DNA of 64,000 nucleotides from Acholeplasmataceae bacterium (GCA_963675245.1 OY775910.1:1056001-1120000); one strand, 5' to 3'. Positions 2,221-43,654 are shown, numbered from the stretch's first letter. Notes: a model not told the origin generated them from the letters alone. Made by a program: numbers and translations.

Positions 2221-3507
2221 ATGACGAAAATTATTGGTGCGGGATTAGCTGGTGTGGAAGCTGCATATTATCTTGCAAATCACGGCATAGATGTCACACT
2301 CTATGAAATGCGTCCACACAAAATGACACCCGCCCATCAAACAGGCAACTTTGCAGAATTAGTATGTTCAAACTCACTTAGATCTGATGACATTAAAAAT
2401 GCCGTCGGTCTTTTAAAGAAAGAAATGGAAACCATTGGATCTTTGGTCATGCAAGCTGCACGACATGCGAGTGTCCCTGCAGGATCTAGTTTAGCCGTTG
2501 ATCGTAAACTATTCTCAAGTTTTATTATGGACAAATTAGAGCATCATCCCCGTATTACAATCGTTAGAGAAGAAGTTAAAGACATAGATTTAAATACACC
2601 TACTATCGTGTGTGCAGGACCACTTGTAAGTGATGACTTATCATCATATTTACAAAAACTATTACATCAAAGTTATCTTCATTTCTATGATGCTATCGCT
2701 CCAATCATTGATGCTGATTCTATTAACTTAGATATTGCTTATTTAAAGAGTAGATATGATAAGGGTGAAGCTGCTTATATTAATTGTCCAATGACAAAAG
2801 CGGAATATGAAGCATTTTATGATGCGTTAATACACGCTGAAACAGTCAGTGTTAAAGGTTTTGAAAACAATGTTTTTGAAGGGTGTATGCCATTTGAAAC
2901 GATGGCTTCACGTGGCCATGATACACTATTATATGGCCCAATGAAACCAGTCGGATTAGAAGTTGAAGGAAGAGAAAAACCCTATGCAGTTGTGCAATTA
3001 AGACAAGATGATGCAGCTAAACAAATGTATAACATTGTTGGTTTTCAAACACATCTTACGTGGCCAGAACAAAAACGCATTATCCAAATGATCCCTGGTT
3101 TAGAGAATGCTAAGATTCTGCGTTATGGTGTGATGCATAGAAATACATATATTGAAAGTCCTAAAGTATTAAATAACGGTTATCAAGTTAAAGATCATTC
3201 TAACCTTTTTATTGCTGGACAAATCAGTGGTGTTGAAGGTTATGTAGAGAGTGCTGCATCTGGATTGAATGCAGCAATACAATTAGTTAGAGTCATTCAA
3301 GGAAAAGAAATTAATCCATTGCCAAGAGAAACGATGATGGGGGCAATGGCTCATTATATTTCCACATCCAATCAATCGTTCGTTCCTATGAATGCGAATT
3401 TAGGGTTATTTCCTGAGTTAGGATTTAAACATTATAAAAAAGAACGGAAAGAACTATATGCTGGACGTTCATTGGTGGCGTTAGATCAGTACTTGGAGGA
3501 ATTATGA
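2221..3507 (+). CDS. trmFO: FAD/folate-dependent tRNA m5U54 methyltransferase
   Basis: IIGAGLAGVEAA, ELVCSNS, YGVMHRNTY, GVEGYVESAASG. Confidence 0.96.
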   Translation: MTKIIGAGLAGVEAAYYLANHGIDVTLYEMRPHKMTPAHQTGNFAELVCSNSLRSDDIKNAVGLLKKEMETIGSLVMQAARHASVPAGSSLAVDRKLFSSFIMDKLEHHPRITIVREEVKDIDLNTPTIVCAGPLVSDDLSSYLQKLLHQSYLHFYDAIAPIIDADSINLDIAYLKSRYDKGEAAYINCPMTKAEYEAFYDALIHAETVSVKGFENNVFEGCMPFETMASRGHDTLLYGPMKPVGLEVEGREKPYAVVQLRQDDAAKQMYNIVGFQTHLTWPEQKRIIQMIPGLENAKILRYGVMHRNTYIESPKVLNNGYQVKDHSNLFIAGQISGVEGYVESAASGLNAAIQLVRVIQGKEINPLPRETMMGAMAHYISTSNQSFVPMNANLGLFPELGFKHYKKERKELYAGRSLVALDQYLEEL

Positions 3508-4418
3508 ATCCAGTTAAAGCTTTTATAGATTATTTAACAAATGAAAAGAATTACTCTGAACACACATTAATTAGCTATGAACGTGACATTCTAGATTTTG
3601 AAGCGTTTATTGAACATGAAGAATTAGCGCCAGATTTGCTAGGTGTGAAAAGAGAAAGATTGGGCAGACATTTCTTATCGCATTTAGATGAATTGGGATT
3701 AAGTAAAAAAACAATTGCTAGAAAAATATCAGCTCTCCGTACGTTTTATGGGTATTTACAAAAACAAGAGATGATTGATATCAATATTTTTAAAGATTTG
3801 GAAATTCCTAAAATTCCTAAAAAATTACCGAGTATGATTGATGATGATGAAATTGAAATGATATTTAAATCTATCGACCAGTCAACACCATTAGGTTATC
3901 GTAATTACGTCATTTTTGATTTATTATATAGCTGCGGTTTACGTGCGAGTGAACTAATTGGTATGACAACTAAAGATATTCAATTAAATGCCGAACAAAT
4001 TTTAATTCATGGGAAAGGTTCAAAAGATCGTTACGTACCTCTTCATGCTCATTTAATTGATGAACTTAAACATTATTTAACATACACGAGACCTGTTTTA
4101 TTATCTAAAGGTCATGACATAACAGTTCGTGAAGTTCTTCTGAACTATAGAGGTGGTCCATTGACCGTTAGAGGACTGCAATTGATCTTAAAAAAGATTA
4201 TTAAAGATTCTGGTGAAACATTTAAAATTCACCCACATATGTTAAGACATGCATTCGCAACCACACTTCTAAATCATGGTGCTGATTTACGTGTTGTTCA
4301 AGAATTATTAGGACATGCTCATTTAAAATCCACACAGATTTATACGCATGTTTCATCTGAAAAAATACGTGAATCATATCGTGATAAACATCCTAGGATG
4401 GTAAAAAAAAATGATTAG
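3504..4418 (+). CDS. xerC: XerC/CodV-like tyrosine recombinase
   Basis: GLRASEL, GKGSKDR, HPHMLRHAFAT, LLGH, TQIY catalytic residues; trmFO-xerC synteny as in Firmicutes. Confidence 0.85.
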   Translation: MNPVKAFIDYLTNEKNYSEHTLISYERDILDFEAFIEHEELAPDLLGVKRERLGRHFLSHLDELGLSKKTIARKISALRTFYGYLQKQEMIDINIFKDLEIPKIPKKLPSMIDDDEIEMIFKSIDQSTPLGYRNYVIFDLLYSCGLRASELIGMTTKDIQLNAEQILIHGKGSKDRYVPLHAHLIDELKHYLTYTRPVLLSKGHDITVREVLLNYRGGPLTVRGLQLILKKIIKDSGETFKIHPHMLRHAFATTLLNHGADLRVVQELLGHAHLKSTQIYTHVSSEKIRESYRDKHPRMVKKND

Positions 4419-4974
4419 TTTAGGACCACTCATTATCGAAGAAGGCCTCGTATTCGATCGAAAACCAAAGACGAGACAAACAGCAAGAGCAATTATAATC
4501 AATGAGAAATACGAACTCTTGATGGCGTATTCTAATCTCTTTAAGGATTATACATTTGCAGGTGGTGGATTAAAGTCTGGTGAAGACTTTGAAATGGCTT
4601 TAAAAAGGGAATTATCAGAAGAGTTTGGTGCATCGGATATATCCATACACAAAGCACTAGGGTATACACAAGAATTACGTTATGGCATCCGCGGTGAAGC
4701 AGATATATATATCCAAACATCCATTTACTATATGTGTAAAATCAATCAATTTAAGACACCTGATTTACATGATCGAGAAGTGAAACATGGTTTAGAACCA
4801 GAGTGGGTTTCAATTGATGATGCGTTAAAACAAAATGAATTTATCATTATTGACGAAAGGCACCAAACCAAAGGGTTGAAAACGGTGCTCGTTCGTGAAA
4901 ATATGGTCTTAAAAAAACTAAAGGAGAAAAAGGTATGCGACGATTTGAAAGAGTATCTACATTCGAACATTTAA
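4411..4974 (+). CDS. NUDIX hydrolase
   Basis: GGGLKSGEDFEMALKRELSEEFG Nudix box. Confidence 0.85.
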   Translation: MISLGPLIIEEGLVFDRKPKTRQTARAIIINEKYELLMAYSNLFKDYTFAGGGLKSGEDFEMALKRELSEEFGASDISIHKALGYTQELRYGIRGEADIYIQTSIYYMCKINQFKTPDLHDREVKHGLEPEWVSIDDALKQNEFIIIDERHQTKGLKTVLVRENMVLKKLKEKKVCDDLKEYLHSNI

Positions 4975-33247: not shown

Positions 33248-33323
33248 GGCCCGTTGGAGAAACGGTTAACTCACATGCCTTTCACGCATGCATTCACGGG
33301 TTCGAATCCCGTACGGGTCACCA
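33248..33323 (+). tRNA. tRNA-Glu(TTC)
   Basis: Anticodon arm CATGC-CTTTCAC-GCATG; CCA end. Confidence 0.96.
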
Positions 33324-33377
33324 TCTTACCAACAACGCAGTAAGCGTTATACATATGAGTTATTTAACTCAGTTTAA

Positions 33378-33454
33378 GTACCCATAGCTCAATTGGATAG
33401 AGCGCTTGACTACGGATCAAGAGGTTGGGGGTTCAAGTCCTCTTGGGTACGCCA
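33378..33454 (+). tRNA. tRNA-Arg(ACG)
   Basis: Anticodon loop CTACGGA; CCA end. Confidence 0.96.
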
Positions 33455-33459
33455 TTTAT

Positions 33460-33536
33460 CGGGAAGTAGCTTAGCTTGGTAGAGCGCCTGGTTTGGGACC
33501 AGGAGGTCGCAGGTTCAAATCCTGTCTTCCCGACCA
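33460..33536 (+). tRNA. tRNA-Pro(TGG)
   Basis: Anticodon arm CCTGG-TTTGGGA-CCAGG; CCA end. Confidence 0.96.
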
Positions 33537-33543
33537 TTCAATT

Positions 33544-33617
33544 GCGGGCGTAGTTCATCGGTAGAACCTCAGCCTTCCAAGCTGATGAGGTGGGTTCGAT
33601 TCCCATCGCCCGCTCCA
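33544..33617 (+). tRNA. tRNA-Gly(TCC)
   Basis: Anticodon arm TCAGC-CTTCCAA-GCTGA; CCA end; anchors the downstream cassette array. Confidence 0.96.
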
Positions 33618-33662
33618 TAAGAGTAGAATAGGTCTGATACATTCGGTATCATACCTTTTTTT
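33615..33662 (+). repeat. Junction J1: CCA + TAAGAGTAGAATAGG + terminator hairpin
   Basis: CCATAAGAGTAGAATAGGT identical to 35371-35389; GGTCTGATAC/GTATCATACC stem + T run. Confidence 0.85.
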
Positions 33663-33695
33663 ATGCCTTTATTTAGCCGTTTCTATATTTTGACA

Positions 33696-33747
33696 TTGTA
33701 CTAAAATAGATAATTCCATAGATGTGAAATACCCTGTTTTGATACAA
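33696..33747. repeat. 52-bp imperfect palindrome (att-like), copy 1
   Basis: TTGTACTAAAATAGATAATTC...GAAATACCCTGTTTTGATACAA; same-length homologue at 37509-37560. Confidence 0.75.
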
Positions 33748-33770
33748 TTTTAGTAGAAATTAAGAATCCT

Positions 33771-33820
33771 TTACACGATTATATTTCAAAATACACGATT
33801 TAAATTGGATTTACACGATT
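33771..33820 (+). repeat. 3 x TACACGATT at exact 20-bp period
   Basis: Units start at 33771, 33791 and 33811; homologous triplets at 35511 and 37584. Confidence 0.85.
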
Positions 33821-33978
33821 TCAAAATTTTTAGGTTATAAGAGTTCTTTTAGTGTATAATATAACGTAGTATTTGGCCGTATTCGGCATATGCAACTTTC
33901 CGTTGCTAATATGTAAGTACATCTATTCTTGAGTAGGAATGTTCTTTTATGTAGTATTGAATCAAAGGAGGAATCAAC

Positions 33979-34308
33979 ATGGAATATTTTGGATTAAAAT
34001 TACAAACTTTAAGAAAAAAAGCATCTATGTCACAAGACGATTTAGCTTCATTAATAGGTGTTAGTAGACAAGCTATTAGTAAATGGGAAAGATCAGATGG
34101 ACTACCAGATTTATACAATGTCAAAAAAATTGCAGAGGTCTTCAATATCACTATTGATGAATTAATGGATATTGAGATAAAACCAATTGATATGGACAAA
34201 GTTAAAACAAATAAATTAGCACTTGCATTTTTAACTGTACCAGGAGCAATTTTAGCGTTTTTATCAATTATTGCTTTAATCGAATTTTTAGGAGGTATAG
34301 TGTTATGA
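33979..34308 (+). CDS. XRE-family HTH protein with TM helix
   Basis: LRKKASMSQDDLASLIGVSRQAISKWE. Confidence 0.88.
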   Translation: MEYFGLKLQTLRKKASMSQDDLASLIGVSRQAISKWERSDGLPDLYNVKKIAEVFNITIDELMDIEIKPIDMDKVKTNKLALAFLTVPGAILAFLSIIALIEFLGGIVL

Positions 34309-35171
34309 TTTTTCAAGGCGGATTTACAATCTCAACATTGTTTGCTTTAGTAGTACCAGTTATAGGTGTAACATATTTATTCTCGCTATATAATCTTTAC
34401 ATAGGTAGAAATGTTTTAAAACATAAGTACATTATTCTAGGAATGAACTTTACATTCTTGTTTGGGTATATTATTATTTTGTTCAATATACCTGAATACA
34501 ATCACATTCCACTTATAGTATTATTGATTTTGATTTTAGCTATAATAGTTTTAGGTATTATTGGTGGGTTTTTGTATGAACAAGAACGAAGTCGTAATTA
34601 TATTGATAAGTATGCTCATTTAACAAAAAGATTACTTTTTGCTGTAAAATCGACATATGGATTTGTTGGTCTAGTTTTTATTGCATTCTTTTCTTATACT
34701 TTGTTGACACATGAAATTGAAGTCGTAAACAGAATTTCATATTATTTTGAACAGCCAGATAATGTTGATACTCCATTGTATGGTTATGTCGAGGTGTCTA
34801 CTGATGATGAAGTTACTATTGTTGTTGAAGGTATACATTTGGATTACTCTATTGAGGAGATTAAACAAGTTGAAGTTTACATAAACGATACCTTAGTCCA
34901 CACAAGTGTTAATATTGAAGGGTTCTTGACTAATGAAAATTACAATAGTGAGTATATCGTAATAATTGAAGAACAACCTTCTCAAGGATTTATGTTGAAT
35001 TATGTTTTCGATTATGACTTTGATTCTATGGAAGATTTTGGATCAACTGTTAATGTTAGTATAGTGCTAAGTACTCAGGATAATGTATTCACTTATGATT
35101 ATTCTAGTGTGGATTATAGTTGTGGTTATCAAAACAAGATAGTACCAATTTGGATAAAAGAAGAAAATTAG
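34305..35171 (+). CDS. Membrane protein (about 4 TM + acidic extracellular domain)
   Basis: Hydrophobic N-terminal half; ATGA overlap with the HTH gene. Confidence 0.7.
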   Translation: MIFQGGFTISTLFALVVPVIGVTYLFSLYNLYIGRNVLKHKYIILGMNFTFLFGYIIILFNIPEYNHIPLIVLLILILAIIVLGIIGGFLYEQERSRNYIDKYAHLTKRLLFAVKSTYGFVGLVFIAFFSYTLLTHEIEVVNRISYYFEQPDNVDTPLYGYVEVSTDDEVTIVVEGIHLDYSIEEIKQVEVYINDTLVHTSVNIEGFLTNENYNSEYIVIIEEQPSQGFMLNYVFDYDFDSMEDFGSTVNVSIVLSTQDNVFTYDYSSVDYSCGYQNKIVPIWIKEEN

Positions 35172-35183
35172 ATGTTAGATTTA

Positions 35184-35418
35184 GGGTTTGATGCCCAGTA
35201 TTTAATAGATAGTTGAATAACCTATTTTGATACAAAGAAATTACTACCTGAAAAATATCCGAAAATAAAAAGCCTAAACTAAGCCATAATTTAGGGGTGT
35301 AATTTTTTCGGGTGGGGGTGTAAAAATTTTGGCTAGGGGTGTAAAATTGTAGCAAAATAGGTCATACAACCCATAAGAGTAGAATAGGTTTGATACAATT
35401 GTATCAGGCTTTTTTTTA
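35184..35418. repeat. Right-end module 1 + junction J2 (T-arm mimic, inverted 24-mers enclosing 3 x GGGGTGTAA, CCA, terminator)
   Basis: Near-identical to 37265-37432; GTTGAATAACCTATTTTGATACAA (35212-35235) / TTGTAGCAAAATAGGTCATACAAC (35347-35370). Confidence 0.9.
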
Positions 35419-35510
35419 CGCTATATAGCGCCGTTTCTCCATTCGCCAATATTTTTCGAAACTAAAAAACATACTAGTTTTAAGGGGTTTTTGACATTTC
35501 GATAGAATTT

Positions 35511-35560
35511 CTACACGAGTACATTTTAAAAAATACGATTTAAAATGGTTTTACACGATT
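35511..35560 (+). repeat. 3 x TACACGATT-like at 20-bp period, copy 2
   Basis: CTACACGAGT, AAATACGATT, TTACACGATT at 35511, 35531 and 35551. Confidence 0.8.
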
Positions 35561-35649
35561 TATTATACAAAGATATCATTGCACTTATTTTAATTCTATT
35601 GTATAATTATATTAGTAAGAAAGTAGGAAAGTGAGAAAAAGGTGATATT

Positions 35650-35949
35650 ATGATTATAGAATTAAGAAAGAAATCGCAGATTACGATACCTAAAGAAATT
35701 GTTGATCAATTACATCTCCAAGAAGGAGATCATCTTGAGATATCAGTTAAGGATGGTGCAGTCCTACTAGAACCGGTGGCAATATATTCTAAATCGTATA
35801 TTCAAAAATTAGAAGATACTGTTATGAGAATCAGTGAAGAACCAACCAAGTATAATGTTGGTCCTTTTAAATCTGTGGAAGATGCTATTAAATATTTAGA
35901 AGAATCTGATGAAGAAACTGAAGCTGCAGATAAAGTTAATAAACAATGA
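35650..35949 (+). CDS. AbrB/MazE/SpoVT-family antitoxin
   Basis: KSQITIPKEIVDQLHLQEGDHLEI; acidic tail; ATGA overlap with the toxin gene. Confidence 0.85.
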   Translation: MIIELRKKSQITIPKEIVDQLHLQEGDHLEISVKDGAVLLEPVAIYSKSYIQKLEDTVMRISEEPTKYNVGPFKSVEDAIKYLEESDEETEAADKVNKQ

Positions 35950-36212
35950 GATACGAAATACTGTTTTCAAATAAATTTAAGAAATCTTTTTCTAAACTTG
36001 AACTTTATGAAAAGAAATTATTCTATAAAAAGCTATCTTTATTTGTTGAAAATCATCAGCATCCCAGCTTGAGAACAAAAAAGATTCAAGGTAGCGAGAT
36101 ATTGTTTGAATCTAGCATAAATATGTCAATTAGAGTTATTTGGACATTTAAGGATGAATCCCTAATATTGATGTTAGATATTGGTCACCATGATATATTG
36201 AAAAGATTATAA
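35946..36212 (+). CDS. RelE/ParE-superfamily toxin
   Basis: FSNKFKKSFSKL, HPSLRTKKIQG, IRVIW, DIGHHDIL. Confidence 0.82.
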   Translation: MRYEILFSNKFKKSFSKLELYEKKLFYKKLSLFVENHQHPSLRTKKIQGSEILFESSINMSIRVIWTFKDESLILMLDIGHHDILKRL

Positions 36213-36368
36213 TGTTAAACTTTGGTTTTTTGAAAAAACCAGAGTTTTTTTGTAGTGAATTATTTTTTGTAAAATGTTATAATGTAAGAAAAATCTTACA
36301 AAAATTGTTGTATGTACTTGGTGGATGGATTATAAGATATATAATAAAATGGAAGCATCAGAGGAGGA

Positions 36369-37247
36369 ATGAAAATGAAATTCGAAAAAAATCTAGAGTT
36401 ATTAAGAAAAAGAAAAGGATTATCTCAAGAAGATCTAGCTTTAACTATTGGTGTTTCTAGGCAAACTATTTATACATGGGAAGGCGGATTAAACTATCCC
36501 AATATTCTTATGTTAAAAAAAATTGCGAATGTACTAGATGTATCAACAGATGACTTGCTTAATGGGTATGATGTTAGTAAACTACCAAAAAGATTTAAAT
36601 CTGTTGAGCTAAACTACATATCGAAACGACAAGGTGCGATTAAGTATAAAGAAGTTCCAAATTGGTTTATACCATTAAAAGAGGAAGAAGAAGTATGTAC
36701 TGCGTTATACGATGATGGTATAAAAAGTTATTCATATCACTTAACCGTTTTGAATAAGATTCTTTTACATGATAATGAGGGATATGAAGTAATGGTAGAA
36801 GAATATGACCCCCAGTTAAACAAGACAAAAACCTATTCATTAATTATTAATGAAGTTAATGATGAACTATTCTTTTTGGGGAGAATTCACTTCGAAGATG
36901 GTATTAAATGCATTGAAACATTTAAAGATAAAAAGTTTTTGAATCACTGGGGAATTGGGAAACAGTTTTTAGGACAATCAATGATTTATGATAATGCAGA
37001 AAACTATGAACTAACCATTGATGGTAAAAAGCAAAAAGCTATTAAAATTAGCTATTTCGATCCGGATGGTACAGATGATCCAAAAAATTCATATTTTGAA
37101 GTATTTTTAAATCAAGAACTACAGTCTATATTCTGGCAAAGATATACCACAGGGGTGAAATCGAAGATTCAAATCAATATTGATGGAAAGCAATATGGTT
37201 TAGGTTACCAATCATTAACAGATAGAATAAATTTGCATGAGAATTGA
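36369..37247 (+). CDS. XRE-family HTH protein with large C-terminal domain
   Basis: LRKRKGLSQEDLALTIGVSRQTIYTWEGG; RBS GAGGAGG. Confidence 0.85.
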   Translation: MKMKFEKNLELLRKRKGLSQEDLALTIGVSRQTIYTWEGGLNYPNILMLKKIANVLDVSTDDLLNGYDVSKLPKRFKSVELNYISKRQGAIKYKEVPNWFIPLKEEEEVCTALYDDGIKSYSYHLTVLNKILLHDNEGYEVMVEEYDPQLNKTKTYSLIINEVNDELFFLGRIHFEDGIKCIETFKDKKFLNHWGIGKQFLGQSMIYDNAENYELTIDGKKQKAIKISYFDPDGTDDPKNSYFEVFLNQELQSIFWQRYTTGVKSKIQINIDGKQYGLGYQSLTDRINLHEN

Positions 37248-37264
37248 TTTCTGGATAAATAGAA

Positions 37265-37476
37265 GGGTTGGATACCCTACAATAAGTTGATTAGTTGAAT
37301 AACCTATTTTGACACAAGAGAATGACTACTAAAAAAATTGAAAAACAAAACCTCTAAACTAAGCCATAATTTAGGGGTGTAATTTTTTAGGATGGGGGTG
37401 TAAAATTGTAGCAAAATAGGTCACACAACCCATATTGAAAGCATTAGTCAGATACGATTAAGTATCAGACCTTTTT
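37265..37476. repeat. Right-end module 2 + junction J3
   Basis: GGGTTGGATACCC; inverted 24-mers at 37294-37317 and 37406-37429; 2 x GGGGTGTAA; CCA at 37430; GTCAGATAC/GTATCAGAC hairpin. Confidence 0.9.
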
Positions 37477-37508
37477 GGTCTTAATTAAACTATTTCTTGT
37501 TTATAGTG

Positions 37509-37633
37509 TTGTGTTAAAATAGGTAGTTTTACAGGTAGAGAATAATCTATTTTAATACATTCTTAGTAGAAAATTTGAATCTTCAACACGATTACATTTT
37601 AAAATTCATGTTTGAAATCGATTTTACTCGATT
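37509..37633. repeat. 52-bp palindrome copy 2 + degenerate 20-bp-period triplet
   Basis: TTGTGTTAAAATAGGTAG...GAATAATCTATTTTAATACAT; units at 37584, 37604 and 37624; same offset (24 nt from palindrome end to first unit) as copy 1. Confidence 0.75.
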
Positions 37634-37757
37634 AAAGTAAAATAACTCTTTGACTAGTATGACTTGACAAAATAACCTTTAAATCCAACAAAGAAAAAGC
37701 TATAATAGAAATAGTAATAATAAATTTTTAACATAGTATTTATAGGAGGTATTTGTA

Positions 37758-38231
37758 GTGAAATATGTATTTAAAGATTATGATATAAGATATTTTGCAG
37801 GAATTAAATTGCCAAATGGAATTGCAGTTGAAGATACCGATAATGAAGCAGTCCCCACATTATGGAATAGATTAGTTAGTGAAGTTTTACATCATATTCC
37901 GAACATGATCCATCCTAATAAATTCATAGGCTTAGAATGTTTTAGCCCTGACTTTAAGGAGACTAGAAGATTTGATTATTATGCTTTAGTTCAAACGGAA
38001 TCATTTGTAGATAATGAAGAACATTTTGTTGCAAAGAAACTACCAAAAGGGAAATATATTTGTTTCGAAATACTGTTTAATAATTTAGATGAAGAAATAA
38101 GGAAGTGTCATAATTATATACAATCTAATAACATTAAAGTTAATACTGAATTTGACTATACCGAGTATTTAGATGGAGAAGACTATAGTAATGAAAAAGC
38201 TAAAGTACATTTTAGTTTTTTATTGATTTAG
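37758..38231 (+). CDS. GyrI-like/effector-binding domain protein
   Basis: VPTLWNRL, FDYYA, KLPKGKY; GTG start after AGGAGG. Confidence 0.8.
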   Translation: MKYVFKDYDIRYFAGIKLPNGIAVEDTDNEAVPTLWNRLVSEVLHHIPNMIHPNKFIGLECFSPDFKETRRFDYYALVQTESFVDNEEHFVAKKLPKGKYICFEILFNNLDEEIRKCHNYIQSNNIKVNTEFDYTEYLDGEDYSNEKAKVHFSFLLI

Positions 38232-38244
38232 AAGTATATGATTC

Positions 38245-38303
38245 AAACAAGTCATACAACGCATAAGGAAATCATATGACCGATACATTATATCGGTCTT
38301 TTT
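38245..38303 (+). repeat. Degenerate junction J4
   Basis: AAACAAGTCATACAAC-GCATA then GACCGATA/TATCGGTC hairpin + T run. Confidence 0.7.
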
Positions 38304-38750
38304 GATATATTTATAAAGCATGACTTTTTTTATGAAGATTGAAGTAATAAAGTTGTTATTACTAGAGGGTTTATAAAGTTTCTTGATAAATTACGTTATC
38401 TTATACTTTTCTAAAATGAGATTAGATGATAGAATGATTCAAAAGGAAATAGTAATTTTTAAGATAATTAATACAAAAACAAGTGTTACTTATCGGCTAG
38501 AAGAGGTCATGACATAATAAAATACTGAACCTTGGACAAGTGTTGGCTTTTTATTTCACATATAAGATTACTTTTTAGATGTCAATAGATAGAATTTTCA
38601 TATATGTAGGTATGTCATTTGAACATATCATATCTAATCTAAAGAAAATAGAATATCAAGTATTAATGATAATTGAAATAACAAAATGTTATAGAATGGA
38701 TACTAAATTAATTAAAATACAATCAACTATTAAATAGGAGAAAGAAGTTA

Positions 38751-39398
38751 ATGAAAATAGAATGGAGAAAACAGTATAAGAATCTTTATTTACCAAAAAC
38801 GAAACCGGAAATTATTGAAACAGATGAAATGGCTTACATTGTTATTGAAGGTGAAGGTAGTCCAGATAGCTTACAATTTTCACAAGCAGTTGAAGCGTTA
38901 TATGCATTATCATATAGTCTTAAAATGGCTCCAAAAAAAGGGTATAACATCGATGGGTATCAAGCATATACTGTATTCCCTTTAGAAGGTGTCTGGTGTC
39001 TGAATAAAGAAGGGATAAAGATGAATGCTAAAGGTATTTCAGCAAATGATTTAAGAGACTATTATATGTTCAAAATGATGATTAGACAACCAGAATTTAC
39101 GACTAAATCACTATTTGAAGATATCAAAAAAAATGCGTATAAAAAGAAAAAGAATGAAAGCATTCTTAAAGCTGAATATAAACGTATTAAAGAACCCATG
39201 AGTTGTCAAATGATGCATATTGGTCCATATAAGACAGAGCCCAAAACATTTAAAATAATGGAAGATTTTGTCATCAAAGAAGGATATTCTAGAAAAGAGA
39301 AATATCATAAAGAAATCTATATTTCAGATCCTAGAAAAGTTGCTCCTGATAAAATGAAAACAGTACTTAGATTTGAACTTAAAAAAGAGGTTTTATAG
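38751..39398 (+). CDS. GyrI-like small-molecule-binding protein
   Basis: LYLPKTKPEII, VFPLEGVW, QMMHIGPY, HKEIYISDPRK. Confidence 0.85.
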   Translation: MKIEWRKQYKNLYLPKTKPEIIETDEMAYIVIEGEGSPDSLQFSQAVEALYALSYSLKMAPKKGYNIDGYQAYTVFPLEGVWCLNKEGIKMNAKGISANDLRDYYMFKMMIRQPEFTTKSLFEDIKKNAYKKKKNESILKAEYKRIKEPMSCQMMHIGPYKTEPKTFKIMEDFVIKEGYSRKEKYHKEIYISDPRKVAPDKMKTVLRFELKKEVL

Positions 39399-39455
39399 TA
39401 GGGTATTCAACCCTTAATAAAGGCTTTTCTGATGAGGTTTTATCAGACTTCTTTG
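39395..39455 (+). repeat. Degenerate junction J5 (probable distal end of the array)
   Basis: ATAGTAGGGTATTCAAC-CCT-TAA then TCTGAT/ATCAGA hairpin + T-rich tract. Confidence 0.5.
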
Positions 39456-39621
39456 TCACTTTTTTAATCCTTATCTTTTGTGAATAAAACACTTGATTTC
39501 TACGCTAATGAAATGATTAAAATCGACAAATTATTGTTGTAACAATGCATATTTGATAGAGGATGACCGTAGACTGGATTAATTATTGACTTTTTATACA
39601 ATTTATGATAAACTTTTTTAA

Positions 39622-39714
39622 AGATAAAGGCAAAACTAGAGAAATCTAGTGACGCAAAGCTAAAGGGTCTTGAATAAAGATAGCCAGTTACCAACATTTT
39701 TTTGTTGGTTTTTT
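39622..39714 (+). promoter_or_regulatory. c-di-GMP-I (GEMM) riboswitch with overlapping terminator
   Basis: GGCAAAACTAGA-GAAA-TCTAGTGACGCAAAGCTAAAGGGTCT...AGATAGCCAGTTACC; ACCAACA/TGTTGGT + T run. Confidence 0.9.
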
Positions 39715-39727
39715 GTTTGGTGCAGAA

Positions 39728-42700
39728 ATGAAAAGAAAATTGGTTAGTAAAAAATTAATCATAATTACATTATTACTCATCCTAGTGATTAGTAATTTTG
39801 GTCTTTCATTCGCATACTGGTCAGGACATATTGAAAGTAGTGAAGTCAATGCAAACCCTTCAATTCCAATTGGTTCTTGGAATTATGAAGATGTTGCATT
39901 AACTGTCGCAACCTTCCTCAGTGATCATTCAGACGTTTTAGCACTGACAACAGAGACAGTAACCGTGAATGATAAAGCAGCGGTTGAAGCAGCACTTGGC
40001 GCATATGGTTTATTAAGTGAAGAAGCGAAAGCAGCATTAACCAGTGAAGAAGCGTTACTGATTGAGTTATTCAATGAAATCACAGCGTATGAGCATAGTG
40101 TGTTCCTAGACTTTGAAGGATATGCCTATGATTCAGGGCTGACAGGCACCGTCGAAATTGATGGTAGAACATGGTATGGAAATGGTGTCTACATATCTAA
40201 TGATCCAAGTTATGATGTATGGATGGATACGCGTTCCTTAGCATTAAAAACAGGAGCTTATTTCCAATCACAAGACTACTTCATAAATGGTATTGAAAAG
40301 ATTAGCATATACAGTGGCGCATTACACTTTGATAATGGCACAAGTTTCGCCTATAAGATAGAATATGAACTACAGTCAAATCCAGGGGTTTGGCTAACGG
40401 TACAAGAAGGTGGTTCTGATAAGATTATCAGCGTTATTTCAGGCACCCCATTAGCACATGCAGAAGTAAACGTGAATATTACTGAGGCAGTAAATATTAG
40501 ATTCACACCAGTAATTGGAAATACATCTGATTATATTAACTTAGACAATATTCGTATTTATGAACACGTGGTGACAAGCGCACTGGAAGCAGCGACTTTC
40601 AGAACAGTTTATGCAGGACCACTAGCATTGACAACAAGCACCGTACAAATCAGTGATAAAGCAGCAATTGAAGCAGCATTATCAGCCTATGATTTATTGA
40701 GTATCGATGCTCAAACAGCGTTAATAGCTGAAAAAGCATTACTTGATAGTATCATGGCAGCAATTGAAACACAAGAAGCATATGAAAGTGCAACAGAAGC
40801 AGTCGTAATCGCAGAAGGAAGTCTCTTACAAACAGATGTTGATAGCGCACAAACATTAGTTACTAGCTTACCAAATGGTACAGCGAAGACAGCGCTTCAA
40901 GACCGCTTAAATGACGTGCAAGATATCATAAACGACATAGCAACCTTCATCGGTGATCACACCAGTGTATTATCGTTAAGTGTAGGAACTGTCACAACAG
41001 GTGATAAAGCAGCGGTTGAAGCAGCTTTAGCAGACTATGCATTACTGAGTGAAAGTGTAAAGGCAGAACTCACAAATGAGAAAGCCTTACTTGATAGTTT
41101 ATTAGCAGAAATTAATAATCAAATACCGACGGCGACGTTGGTCCAAGCATTCAGAACGACTTACGCAGATACTTTAGCCTTAACCATAGGTACGGTACAA
41201 ATGAGTGATCAAGCAGCGATTGAATTAGCGTTAGAGGCATATGACGTATTAACTGCTGAAGCGAAAGCTGAACTCACAGCTGAAAAAGCATTATTGGATA
41301 GTTTAATCGTAGAAGTGATGATACTCAAAGCAACAGAAGCAGTCGTGATCGCAGAAGGAAGTCTTTTACAAGCAGATGTTGATAGCGCACAAACATTAGT
41401 TATTAGCTTACCAAATGGTACAGCGAAGATAGCGCTTCAAGATCGACTTGATGATGTCCAAAATATGATTGATCATTTAATAACAATTGCTGAAGAGGTC
41501 GCAACCTTCCTCAGTGATCATTCAGACGTTTTAGCACTGACAACAGAGACAGTAACCGTGAATGATAAAGCAGCGGTTGAAGCAGCACTTGGCGCATATG
41601 GTTTATTAAGTGAAGAAGCGAAAGCAGCATTAACCAGTGAAGAAGCGTTACTGATTGAGTTATTCAATGAAATCACAGCGTATGAGCATAGTGTGTTCCT
41701 AGACTTTGAAGGATATGCCTATGATTCAGGGCTGACAGGCACCGTCGAAATTGATGGTAGAACATGGTATGGAAATGGTGTCTACATATCTAATGATCCA
41801 AGTTATGATGTATGGATGGATACGCGTTCCTTAGCATTAAAAACAGGAGCTTATTTCCAATCACAAGACTACTTCATAAATGGTATTGAAAAGATTAGCA
41901 TATACAGTGGCGCATTACACTTTGATAATGGCACAAGTTTCGCCTATAAGATAGAATATGAACTACAGTCAAATCCAGGGGTTTGGCTAACGGTACAAGA
42001 AGGTGGTTCTGATAAGATTATCAGCGTTATTTCAGGCACCCCATTAGCACATGCAGAAGTAAACGTGAATATTACTGAGGCAGTAAATATTAGATTCACA
42101 CCAGTAATTGGAAATACATCTGATTATATTAACTTAGACAATATTCGTATTTATGAACACGTGGTGACAAGCGCACTGGAAGCAGCGACTTTCAGAACAG
42201 TTTATGCAGGACCACTAGCATTGACAACAAGCACCGTACAAATCAGTGATAAAGCAGCAATTGAAGCAGCATTATCAGCCTATGATTTATTGAGTATCGA
42301 TGCTCAAACAGCGTTAATAGCTGAAAAAGCATTACTTGATAGTATCATGGCAGCAATTGAAACACAAGAAGCATATGAAAGTGCAACAGAAGCAGTCGTA
42401 ATCGCAGAAGGAAGTCTCTTACAAACAGATGTTGATAGCGCACAAACATTAGTTACTAGCTTACCAAATGGTACAGCGAAGACAGCGCTTCAAGACCGCT
42501 TAAATGACGTGCAAGATATCATAAACGACATAGCAACCTTCATCGGTGATCACACCAGTGTATTATCGTTAAGTGTAGGAACTGTCACAACAGGTGATAA
42601 AGCAGCGGTTGAAGCAGCTTTAGCAGACTATGCATTACTGAGTGAAAGTGTAAAGGCAGAACTCACAAATGAGAAAGCCTTACTTGATAGTTTATTAGCA

Positions 42701-43654
42701 GAAATTAATAATCAAATACCGACGGCGACGTTGGTCCAAGCATTCAGAACGACTTACGCAGATACTTTAGCCTTAACCATAGGTACGGTACAAATGAGTG
42801 ATCAAGCAGCGATTGAATTAGCGTTAGAGGCATATGACGTATTAACTGCTGAAGCGAAAGCTGAACTCACAGCTGAAAAAGCATTATTGGATAGTTTAAT
42901 CGTAGAAGTGATGATACTCAAAGCAACAGAAGCAGTCGTGATCGCAGAAGGAAGTCTTTTACAAGCAGATGTTGATAGCGCACAAACATTAGTTATTAGC
43001 TTACCAAATGGTACAGCGAAGATAGCGCTTCAAGATCGACTTGATGATGTCCAAAATATGATTAACGTGCTAGCTGCTGCTAATGTTGATGATTTGATCA
43101 CGGCTATACCTAGTGTGGGAGAAATCTCACTTAGCGATGAATCGCAAATTGTCGCAGCAAGAGTTGCATATGATATTTTAACGATAGCACAACAATCATT
43201 AGTCACAAATGAAGCAATATTATCATCAGCAGAAACGCAACTGACCTCATTACAAACTGCTACTGCTGCAGTTGTGAAAGCAGAAGAAAGTCTCTTACAA
43301 GTAGATGTCAATAGCGCACAAACATTAGTTACTAACCTACCAAATGGCACATCAAGAATAGCACTTCAAAATAGGTTAAATGCTGTTCAAGATGTGATTG
43401 ATGTTGAATCGGCAAGAACAATCATCATTAATTATTTTGCTGCAAACTCAGTTGTAGTATCAAGACTCAATAGCAATGCTATAAAAGAAAATGCAGTCTT
43501 GACAAAATCAAATGAAATCGTCAATGGGCTTGGTGTTAACATTACGATCACAAATTCTGTTTATAACAGTCGAACTAGTTCAACTTACACCATACAAGTT
43601 GTGAAGAATGGTGCAAACACATCGTTTGTTGTAGTTGTTACATTTACAAGATAA
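39728..43654 (+). CDS. Large repetitive surface protein with SipW-type signal peptide
   Basis: KRK + hydrophobic + SFAYW...IPIGSW; Ala-rich helical repeats and beta-rich domains; 531-aa-period duplication. Confidence 0.8.
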   Translation: MKRKLVSKKLIIITLLLILVISNFGLSFAYWSGHIESSEVNANPSIPIGSWNYEDVALTVATFLSDHSDVLALTTETVTVNDKAAVEAALGAYGLLSEEAKAALTSEEALLIELFNEITAYEHSVFLDFEGYAYDSGLTGTVEIDGRTWYGNGVYISNDPSYDVWMDTRSLALKTGAYFQSQDYFINGIEKISIYSGALHFDNGTSFAYKIEYELQSNPGVWLTVQEGGSDKIISVISGTPLAHAEVNVNITEAVNIRFTPVIGNTSDYINLDNIRIYEHVVTSALEAATFRTVYAGPLALTTSTVQISDKAAIEAALSAYDLLSIDAQTALIAEKALLDSIMAAIETQEAYESATEAVVIAEGSLLQTDVDSAQTLVTSLPNGTAKTALQDRLNDVQDIINDIATFIGDHTSVLSLSVGTVTTGDKAAVEAALADYALLSESVKAELTNEKALLDSLLAEINNQIPTATLVQAFRTTYADTLALTIGTVQMSDQAAIELALEAYDVLTAEAKAELTAEKALLDSLIVEVMILKATEAVVIAEGSLLQADVDSAQTLVISLPNGTAKIALQDRLDDVQNMIDHLITIAEEVATFLSDHSDVLALTTETVTVNDKAAVEAALGAYGLLSEEAKAALTSEEALLIELFNEITAYEHSVFLDFEGYAYDSGLTGTVEIDGRTWYGNGVYISNDPSYDVWMDTRSLALKTGAYFQSQDYFINGIEKISIYSGALHFDNGTSFAYKIEYELQSNPGVWLTVQEGGSDKIISVISGTPLAHAEVNVNITEAVNIRFTPVIGNTSDYINLDNIRIYEHVVTSALEAATFRTVYAGPLALTTSTVQISDKAAIEAALSAYDLLSIDAQTALIAEKALLDSIMAAIETQEAYESATEAVVIAEGSLLQTDVDSAQTLVTSLPNGTAKTALQDRLNDVQDIINDIATFIGDHTSVLSLSVGTVTTGDKAAVEAALADYALLSESVKAELTNEKALLDSLLAEINNQIPTATLVQAFRTTYADTLALTIGTVQMSDQAAIELALEAYDVLTAEAKAELTAEKALLDSLIVEVMILKATEAVVIAEGSLLQADVDSAQTLVISLPNGTAKIALQDRLDDVQNMINVLAAANVDDLITAIPSVGEISLSDESQIVAARVAYDILTIAQQSLVTNEAILSSAETQLTSLQTATAAVVKAEESLLQVDVNSAQTLVTNLPNGTSRIALQNRLNAVQDVIDVESARTIIINYFAANSVVVSRLNSNAIKENAVLTKSNEIVNGLGVNITITNSVYNSRTSSTYTIQVVKNGANTSFVVVVTFTR
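39905..43063 (+). repeat. Intragenic direct repeat, 2 x 1566 bp (39905-41470 and 41498-43063)
   Basis: Identical translated segments; nucleotide identity at all spots checked; 27-bp unique linker. Confidence 0.92.

Follow-up and report, generated by a model that had tools for sequence, protein, structure and literature searches.

Cassette arrays behind tRNA genes of an Acholeplasmataceae bacterium share their ends with prophages that carry a pair of serine recombinases

Here we describe a tandem array of small gene cassettes directly behind the tRNA-Gly(TCC) gene of an Acholeplasmataceae bacterium (GCA_963675245.1). The array was studied in a window of 64,000 nucleotides (OY775910.1:1056001-1120000), and positions are counted from the first letter of that window unless the whole genome, G000 (1,626,300 bp, 33.9% G+C), is named. 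It comprises four co-oriented units, two complete and two decayed. Since the cassettes share their ends with resident viruses of related bacteria, they probably move by borrowing the recombination enzymes of that virus family. We consider it reasonably probable that they are non-autonomous integrative cassettes ('hitchers') serviced in trans by a phage pair of serine recombinases. The autonomous members of the family are best read as temperate phages of Acholeplasmataceae and Izemoplasma-like bacteria. The original prediction, made from this DNA alone, had a recombinase supplied in trans adding cassettes at the tRNA 3′ end, each with its own terminator hairpin. Comparison with other genomes supports this core idea: cassette content varies at the same tRNA, the same cassettes occur in other positions and hosts, and full-length elements with a recombinase exist.

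Ends common to cassettes and prophages

Each unit begins at CCA(TA) with a terminator hairpin and closes in ...AAAATAGGTCATACAAC or a variant of it. In a complete unit, the left end (~200 bp) consists of the hairpin and three copies of TACACGATT, and the right end (~150 bp) of three copies of GGGGTGTAA and the terminal motif. The ends are shared within the array as had been predicted: units 1-3 have in common the left block of three TACACGATT repeats at 20-nt spacing (D2: 33772, 35512, 37585), and units 1 and 2 have in common a right block of ~150 nt, with GGGGTGTAA repeats 21 nt apart and common right-end blocks of 75-86 nt (D3, D4, D6). Directly 3′ of the tRNA-Gly CCA stands the 19-mer CCATAAGAGTAGAATAGGT, followed by a GATAC/GTATC hairpin and a T run; only CCA(TA) is common to the tRNA and the cassette elements. 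The exact recurrence of the post-CCA sequence at 35371 was borne out, the 19-mer matching at 33615 and 35371 and nowhere else in the genome at up to 3 mismatches. Of the degenerate recurrences also proposed, those at 37430 and 38261 stand, being in register (37414-37456 and 38245-38287; repeat family D1). The third, at 39411, is present but weak and vestigial (39400-39455: GTATTCAAC, then CCTTAAT and a hairpin). The motif said to precede the recurrences is found at 35355 as AAAATAGGTCATACAAC, at 37414 as GGTCACACAAC and at 38245 as AAGTCATACAAC.

Profiles of the two ends matched 6 left and 5 right ends across G000, all at loci described here; besides the tRNA-Gly array these are at tRNA-Leu(GAG), tRNA-Ser(GGA) and one odd locus. 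With so few copies, all of them at these loci, the ends are not scattered repetitive extragenic palindromes (REP) or miniature inverted-repeat transposable elements (MITE).

The search for full-length elements that have the same ends and encode a recombinase, a check suggested with the original prediction, was positive. Relatives of the bacterium have a conserved tandem pair of large serine recombinases, of ~437-441 aa and 522-547 aa (~437 and ~529 aa in G167 and G060), with the domains Resolvase, Recombinase and Zn_ribbon_recom. A close homologue of recombinase B of the pair is present in 63 genomes. In 8 of the 9 loci examined, the pair lies upstream of, and co-oriented with, a right end of the cassette kind (type 1) 2-13 kb away: 2 kb in G304, 2.4 kb in G102, 3 kb in G167, 7 kb in G103, 9 kb in G060, 10.5 kb on the MO-XQ plasmid (see below) and 12.6 kb in G048. 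In G166, the available 6 kb showed no right end. Upstream of the pair, at a distance of 18-42 kb (40-42 kb in G103 and G048), four contiguous assemblies have a type-1 left end directly behind tRNA-Leu, which is GAG in G167, G103 and G060 and CAA in G048. A scan of the complete interval in G167 and in G060 met neither further ends nor a tyrosine recombinase, so each is a single element (44.4 kb and 29.9 kb, respectively). The order in G167 is tRNA-Leu(GAG), left end, phage genes, recombinase pair, right end and the next left end. This element is a complete-looking siphovirus-type prophage with genes for the large terminase, portal, prohead protease, capsid, tail and replication; its left end has accessory genes for restriction and defence, and four unknown genes separate the recombinases from the right end. 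The G060 element has the same layout of left end, pair and right end. G048 also holds a degenerate second copy of the pair inside a unit running from hairpin to right end; this copy and locus L158 are deletion derivatives. Genomes differ in the DNA that immediately follows the pair, which shows no conservation. The recombinases score 73-140 bits with the NCBIfam Ccr models, against cut-offs of 700-900, and the closest solved domain is that of the recombinase of a clostridial conjugative transposon.

The ends are spread well beyond G000. A 20-mer of the right end, searched at up to 2 mismatches in 307 genomes of the order, occurs in 51 of them and in 12 of 43 genera, mostly clustered in arrays; the reversed sequence, used as control, gave 1 hit. 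The 20-mer is found in 31 stretches of named genome records, from Acholeplasmataceae, Izemoplasmatales and Mycoplasmatota, including a 93-kb plasmid of 'Tenericutes bacterium MO-XQ'. It is also carried by 78 metagenome loci, which hold 93 full right terminals and 32 precise junctions of a right end with a left end. Metagenome left ends lie directly behind tRNA-Gly-TCC (4), Leu-GAG, Leu-AAG, Leu-TAG and Ser-GGA (1 each), and the anchors overall are Gly-TCC, Leu-GAG/CAA/AAG/TAG and Ser-GGA/CGA. Among the cargo seen are heavy-metal pumps, toxin-antitoxin pairs, systems for restriction and abortive infection, and acetyltransferases. At some junctions, both internal and at tRNA-Gly, another cassette head without the hairpin (..AATGAAATGACTCCAAAAAGTTGGAGAGAAGGTATAAT..) follows CCA(TA); it is seen in L228:1-130 (G165) and past right terminals in L034, L049, L214 and L215.

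Cassette content varies among relatives at tRNA-Gly, a comparison suggested with the original prediction. In two genomes of the same genus, an 18.5-kb array (G164) and a 14-kb array (G171) carry other cargo (an ABC transporter with GntR, a CadA-type pump with ArsR, a nucleoside phosphorylase, methyltransferase and GNAT proteins, and an AAA ATPase), and the site is empty, with native terminators, in G073 and G144. In G168, G169 and G170 a different island, with a small tyrosine integrase, occupies the tRNA-Gly CCA. The ends are 80-90% conserved across genera and the cargo differs. Blocks 99-100% identical are common to different genera and to the MO-XQ plasmid, and blocks 93-100% identical are found at differing positions, tRNAs and genera. 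For example, a Fic cassette that is first behind tRNA-Leu in G000 is fourth in G059, at 93% identity. The identity spans CCATA, hairpin, arms and cargo up to ...CAACCCAA and then stops, so the travelling unit is left end, cargo and right end. The MO-XQ plasmid (CP017949.1; L071-L074, L041-L042) has a tRNA-Cys, a prophage and two separate tandem pairs of serine recombinases, with a cassette array bearing metal-resistance genes downstream, and it may be a phage-plasmid vehicle for cassettes.

How the cassettes may move

The steps that we envisage are as follows. On its left side an integrated member has the CCA of a tRNA gene, or a CCA-like end belonging to the member before it, and then come its own terminator hairpin and the TACACGATT block; on its right side are GGGGTG-type repeats and the terminal ...ATTGTAnCAAAATAGGTCATACAAC. 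A circle joining right and left ends would form a site of ~56 bp resembling a phage attachment site (attP), its outer arms being inverted repeats centred on the CA of CCA. The two adjacent large serine recombinases would integrate the full-length element at the tRNA 3′ end. The small cassettes, keeping both ends and no recombinase, would be excised, inserted and re-sorted only when such a phage or its plasmid-borne copy is present, and each insertion would set a new terminator behind the tRNA operon. Since G000 has no serine recombinase, its three arrays would currently be orphaned.

The geometry of the junctions agrees in part with such a site. CCA comes next after 103 of the 133 distinct right terminals, ACA after 19 and CCATA after 65, the consensus being ...GGTCATACAAC followed by CCATA. 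A dyad scan of 75 junctions put the best centre of symmetry between the C and the A of CCA. The arms at 17-28 nt are complementary at 0.6-1.0 (left ATTGTAnCAAAA; right TTTGATACAAT, which is the left arm of the hairpin), and the inner arms are not symmetric and show little complementarity. The attP sites of serine integrases are imperfect dyads of ~50 bp around a central crossover dinucleotide, and by analogy the ~56-bp junction dyad would fit an attP with a central dinucleotide. The hairpin centre was considered as the recombination core and is unlikely, because the loops vary from 3 to ~27 nt and include a nested hairpin.

The role of the repeat arms is addressed by a more specific proposal, which we hold to be possible though somewhat doubtful: the cassettes would be, rather than debris, dedicated minimal hitchers of phages that keep the whole arms flanking the attachment site because these are read by helper factors besides the integrase. 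Candidate readers of the TACACGATT and GGGGTGTAA triples would be a directionality or architectural protein, or the packaging machinery, and a candidate for the directionality or architectural protein is a conserved helix-turn-helix (HTH) and zinc-ribbon open reading frame (ORF) upstream of the recombinase pair.

Several observations weigh against the proposed service by a phage serine-recombinase pair. The 16-nt spacer past CCA tracks the anchor tRNA (TATAAGAAGCATAGG for Leu, TATTGAAAGCATAGG for Gly), and the junction at 35371 looks hybrid, with one spacer type and another hairpin type; it may be, then, that crossover takes place to the right of CCA rather than at CA. Serine integrases need sites of only ~50 bp and normally recombine attP only with attB, so that the repeat-bearing ends of ~200 and ~150 bp, and the growth of arrays at hybrid sites, are unaccounted for. 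Ccr recombinases, it should be noted, are permissive about inserting at hybrid sites. The range of anchor tRNAs is broad for one integrase. We found no intact small element with left end, complete pair and right end. Large serine recombinases occur in 140 of the 307 genomes, in 36 of the 50 other genomes with the 20-mer as compared with 104 of 256; as these enzymes are widespread in the order, and 14 of those 50 genomes have none, the co-occurrence is weak, and it is confounded by relatedness. Finally, no excision, circle or empty-site polymorphism was seen in assembled contigs of the same strain or in metagenome joints, the latter being ambiguous. The contigs in question were Logan contigs, where three source-sample runs and one low-depth run of the same organism matched the window and contigs broke at the repeats; in the mangrove metagenome joints it was the intervening sequence that was ambiguous.

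The lack of a recombinase in the cassettes themselves is nearly general. Pfam found no recombinase or transposase domain in the genes of the four units, and in the Pfam-annotated arrays of relatives it found no recombinase and only ordinary transposases of insertion sequences (IS). Among 29 complete metagenomic units of 1.2-9.8 kb, one has a recombinase ORF, a 131-aa fragment of a serine recombinase; recombinase profiles matched 8 of the 78 metagenome loci for the serine and 1 for the tyrosine type. The original statement that the window has no integrase holds for the units and fails for the window as a whole, which contains a 304-aa Xer-like tyrosine recombinase at ~3500-4450 (catalytic-domain match G000 1059837-1060358). 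This gene lies 30 kb from the array, with no visible link to it, and its product is 37.5% identical to that of a second Xer-like gene at 1490 kb. In all, G000 encodes six tyrosine recombinases (PF00589): besides these two Xer-like ones there are two small island integrases and one tandem pair, and no array has any of the six next to it; neither a Y1/IS200 transposase nor TnpB was found in G000.

Other candidates were set aside. The IS110-family and IS30-like elements of G000 have unrelated ends and targets, and the tandem tyrosine recombinase pair has no type-1 motifs nearby and is absent from G060. A search for Xer/dif with a degenerate dif-type pattern, a weak search, gave a single candidate near the skew maximum (1465066) that is unlike the cassette hairpin. 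In scans of viral contigs, one element (two near-identical contigs) had cassettes and no recombinase, and a pattern of paired TACACGATT gave 9 matches, all unrelated.

The array could also be inert debris: phages would have integrated repeatedly and lost their core by deletion, leaving stubs next to the attachment sites that are inherited vertically or moved by homologous recombination. The absence of serine recombinases from G000, the degeneracy of units 3 and 4 and the existence of deletion derivatives with recombinase fragments all suit this history, as do the accessory and defence genes that prophages carry beside both ends, which resemble cassette cargo, and the failure to see movement in the contigs and joints just mentioned. 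Yet the 29 small units have both ends intact, the 32 metagenome junctions are precise, and one cassette, cut off sharply at CCA, recurs at 93-99.8% identity in several array positions, downstream of more than one tRNA and on a plasmid. Debris is unlikely on these grounds, and the conservation of the ends at 80-90% across genera with differing cargo argues in the same direction. Another possible agent is the small (~290-aa) Xer-like tyrosine integrase of islands with the order XRE gene, cargo, integrase. These islands insert exactly at tRNA CCA ends, at tRNA-Gly in G168, G169 and G170 and at tRNA-Lys(CTT) and tRNA-Gln(TTG) in G000, with ~7 nt common to the two ends, and their integrases, unlike the serine recombinases, are present in G000. 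We regard this as improbable, since the islands are without any type-1 left or right arms and no inverted core-type sites lie within 15 bp of the junction. Moreover, the one metagenome locus matching the tyrosine-recombinase profile does so outside the units, the 31 genome loci have no such enzyme, nor do the G167 and G060 elements, and G060 has arrays yet only two Xer-like genes and one weak fragment.

It is highly improbable that the ends are ordinary intergenic repeats or regulatory modules (terminator plus promoter or operator) unrelated to mobility. The left hairpins do look like intrinsic terminators: a scan of the region found 6 terminator-like sites, as against 1.9 +/- 1.5 in shuffled sequence, with two of the four left hairpins passing this simple scan, and the last TACACGATT repeat overlaps a promoter-like -35 at 35550. 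The ends in G000 are, however, limited to tRNA-anchored arrays, travel with cargo and bound prophages. The original prediction had also called the array integron-like. As a functional analogy this stands, recombinase-less cassettes being stacked next to a promoter, and one cargo gene matches the Pfam family 'integron-associated effector binding protein' (Cass2). A true integron, or a cluster of attC sites lacking an integron-integrase (CALIN), whose attC-bounded cassettes are moved by IntI, is extremely improbable: there is no IntI-like gene in or beside any annotated array, the junctions have the form ...CAAC then CCATA plus terminator with long asymmetric ends and tRNA anchors, and the full-length members are prophages with a serine pair rather than IntI. 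The conserved core of attC is GTTRRRY and its inverse; it was not seen in the consensus of the 133 terminals, no attC model having been run.

The units, their flanks and other loci in the genome

The anchor, tRNA-Gly(TCC) at 33544-33617 (ARAGORN), is the last gene of a cluster of tRNA-Glu, -Arg, -Pro and -Gly at 33248-33617 (ARAGORN, Rfam), and the array has its left boundary at the terminal CCA of this gene. The cluster is kept in 167 of 172 genomes of the family, and the majority of the matches end at CCA. All features of the array, like the tRNAs, are on the + strand. Unit 1 (33618-35373; end profiles, Pfam) is complete. Its left end (33618-33830) has the hairpin/terminator at ~33633-33658 and the three TACACGATT repeats at 33772-33821; an XRE-HTH gene (33979-34308) and a gene for a 288-aa membrane protein (34305-35171) follow. 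The right end (~35205-35373) contains an inverted S site (35210-35235), the conserved 20-mer (35280-35299), GGGGTGTAA repeats at 35292, 35313 and 35334, and the terminal AAAATAGGTCATACAAC at 35354-35370. A copy of unit 1 that is ~80% identical lies on the MO-XQ plasmid.

Unit 2 (35374-37432; end profiles, Pfam/NCBIfam) is likewise complete, with a left end at 35374-35570, a terminator-like hairpin at 35386-35411 and the TACACGATT block at 35512-35561. It encodes a MazE/AbrB-type antitoxin (35650-35949) and an 88-aa partner ORF (35946-36212), followed by an internal terminator (36217-36247) and an XRE-type protein of 290 aa (36375-37247). The right end (~37287-37432) has GGGGTGTAA at 37372 and 37393 and the terminal GGTCACACAAC. 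A 94% identical copy of the unit is found in G064, and the toxin-antitoxin pair by itself is present at 75-81% in many genomes. At the inner border of the right ends of units 1 and 2 are hairpins resembling a tRNA T-arm (35184-35196, GGGTTTGATGCCC; 37262-37276, GGGTTGGATACCC), each followed by an inverted copy of the 24-nt terminal motif, so that the right end is itself bracketed by inverted repeats.

The two distal units are decaying. Unit 3 (37433-38263) has a full left end (37433-37640: hairpin and degenerate repeats at 37585-37634) and a single GyrI-like/Cass2 gene (37758-38231); its right end has shrunk to the terminal motif AAGTCATACAAC (38245-38260), without GGGGTG repeats. Unit 4 (38264-39413), whose ends were missed by both the left and right end profiles, has a terminator-like hairpin (38278-38298), no TACACGATT repeats, a GyrI-like gene (38751-39398) and a vestigial right end, GTATTCAAC (39402-39410), then CCTTA. 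The array ends between 39413 and 39583. The distal flank (39414-39712) has a degenerate hairpin (39436-39455) and, from ~39583, conserved chromosomal DNA that is kept in G169, there 16.2 kb past tRNA-Gly. A c-di-GMP-I riboswitch (39619-39695; Rfam, 67.8 bits) precedes a gene (39713-43654) for a 1313-aa protein with weak repeat-domain matches to Endotoxin_C2 and SbsC_C. At E<=1 the Rfam scan gave the tRNAs and this one riboswitch, nothing else.

Elsewhere in G000, the tRNA-Leu(GAG) array at 1254700 has an XRE-Fic-GNAT unit and then a GntR unit, and the tRNA-Ser(GGA) array (1344321-1352345) measures 8 kb. The odd locus is at the 3′ end of a P-type ATPase gene. A CadA-type P-type ATPase block with ArsR and lspA (G000 1597732-1602473) is 98.6-100% identical to DNA of MO-XQ (G059), a displaced duplicate of the ATPase 3′ end lies at ~1598930, and an interleaved block of GGGGTGCTAA and TACACGATT repeats follows immediately past the ATPase stop codon. 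A second family of element ends consists of two or three GAGTAAAACTCCGT repeats and then TAATGACAAGACA, and was seen at G000 1349990-1350110 and 1599348-1599430 (minus strand) and at L171:3190-3305. In the tRNA-Ser array such an end abuts a type-1 left hairpin, and in a metagenome contig it abuts a reverse-oriented gene for a 562-aa serine recombinase.

The two integrase islands of G000 (121929-129300 and 993300-995226; XRE gene, cargo and reverse-oriented ~290-aa integrase) sit exactly past the CCA of tRNA-Lys(CTT) and tRNA-Gln(TTG), their ends sharing ~7 nt only. The tandem tyrosine recombinases (1131524-1133448) are 49.5% identical to each other and lie beside an AAA ATPase and a DUF4276-like pair; a similar tandem pair is present in G164. 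The IS110-family element has four identical copies (155561, 634980, 846038, 1356174), all directly past ..CATAnAnT, which resembles start-codon regions on the other strand. The three copies of the IS30-like element (302536, 1252547, 1449525), likewise identical, sit next to terminators, and tRNA-Leu(GAG) follows one of them at a distance of ~1 kb.

Relation to known systems and significance

In composite islands of the staphylococcal cassette chromosome (SCC), autonomous members carry paired large serine recombinases, and pseudo-SCC elements without ccr are stacked with them at rlmH. The family described here is alike in having a serine-recombinase pair on autonomous members with the same boundaries (G167, G060) and recombinase-less cargo, including resistance genes, in tandem at one site between the same boundary repeats. 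It differs in that it targets the CCA end of several tRNA genes rather than rlmH, is carried by prophages and has recombinases that are not orthologous to Ccr, and in that its ends are long, with triple direct repeats. Cis-mobilizable elements (CIMEs) are flanked by the attachment sites of an autonomous element, lack recombination genes and accrete in tandem beside that element, as in streptococci and at tRNA genes. Units 1 and 2 similarly keep both ends without recombinase domains, and the same ends bound the G167 prophage. The helper here, however, would be a phage with serine recombinases, whereas CIME helpers are integrative and conjugative elements with tyrosine integrases; and only CCA(TA) is common with the tRNA, whereas CIME repeats are 3′ segments of tRNAs or genes.

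Integrons and CALINs hold cassettes that have no recombinase of their own and rely on an integrase encoded elsewhere (PMC11389934). The arrays in G000 resemble CALINs in that they would need an outside recombinase; integrons differ in enzyme class and site type, in the single attI beside intI and in having no phage link. Tycheposons of Prochlorococcus integrate serially at tRNA genes, pushing older elements outward, and carry adaptive cargo (bioRxiv 10.1101/2020.12.28.424599). The serial integration at tRNA genes is similar; tycheposons have their own tyrosine recombinase and partial tRNA copies as flanks. Phage satellites of the type of phage-inducible chromosomal islands (PICI) are small elements depending on a helper phage, as the cassettes would be; known satellites encode their own integrase and packaging or regulatory genes, none of which Pfam found in the cassettes. 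The closest mechanistic analogues, on the best reading of these likenesses, would be SCC composite islands and CIMEs, not integrons. What is new, tandem accretion of non-autonomous elements being already known, is the class of enzyme, the carrier, the target and the elaborate form of the ends. A literature search that did not extend to subscription journals brought up no account of arrays of this kind in Acholeplasmataceae or Izemoplasma.

In closing, the comparison points from a recombinase-less array to a specific probable helper, namely temperate phages whose tandem serine pair would target the very ends of tRNA genes. The stockpiling and exchange of accessory genes in small-genome Acholeplasma- and Izemoplasma-like bacteria thereby become testable, and the ~56-bp site with its recombinase pair could interest those who study serine integrases as tools. 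If the cassettes are indeed dedicated hitchers of phages, then phage, plasmid and tRNA-CCA arrays would together form a serine-recombinase system of cassette exchange, functionally equivalent to the integron, by which cassettes for metal resistance, toxin-antitoxin pairs and defence would be shuttled between genera of wall-less Bacillota.

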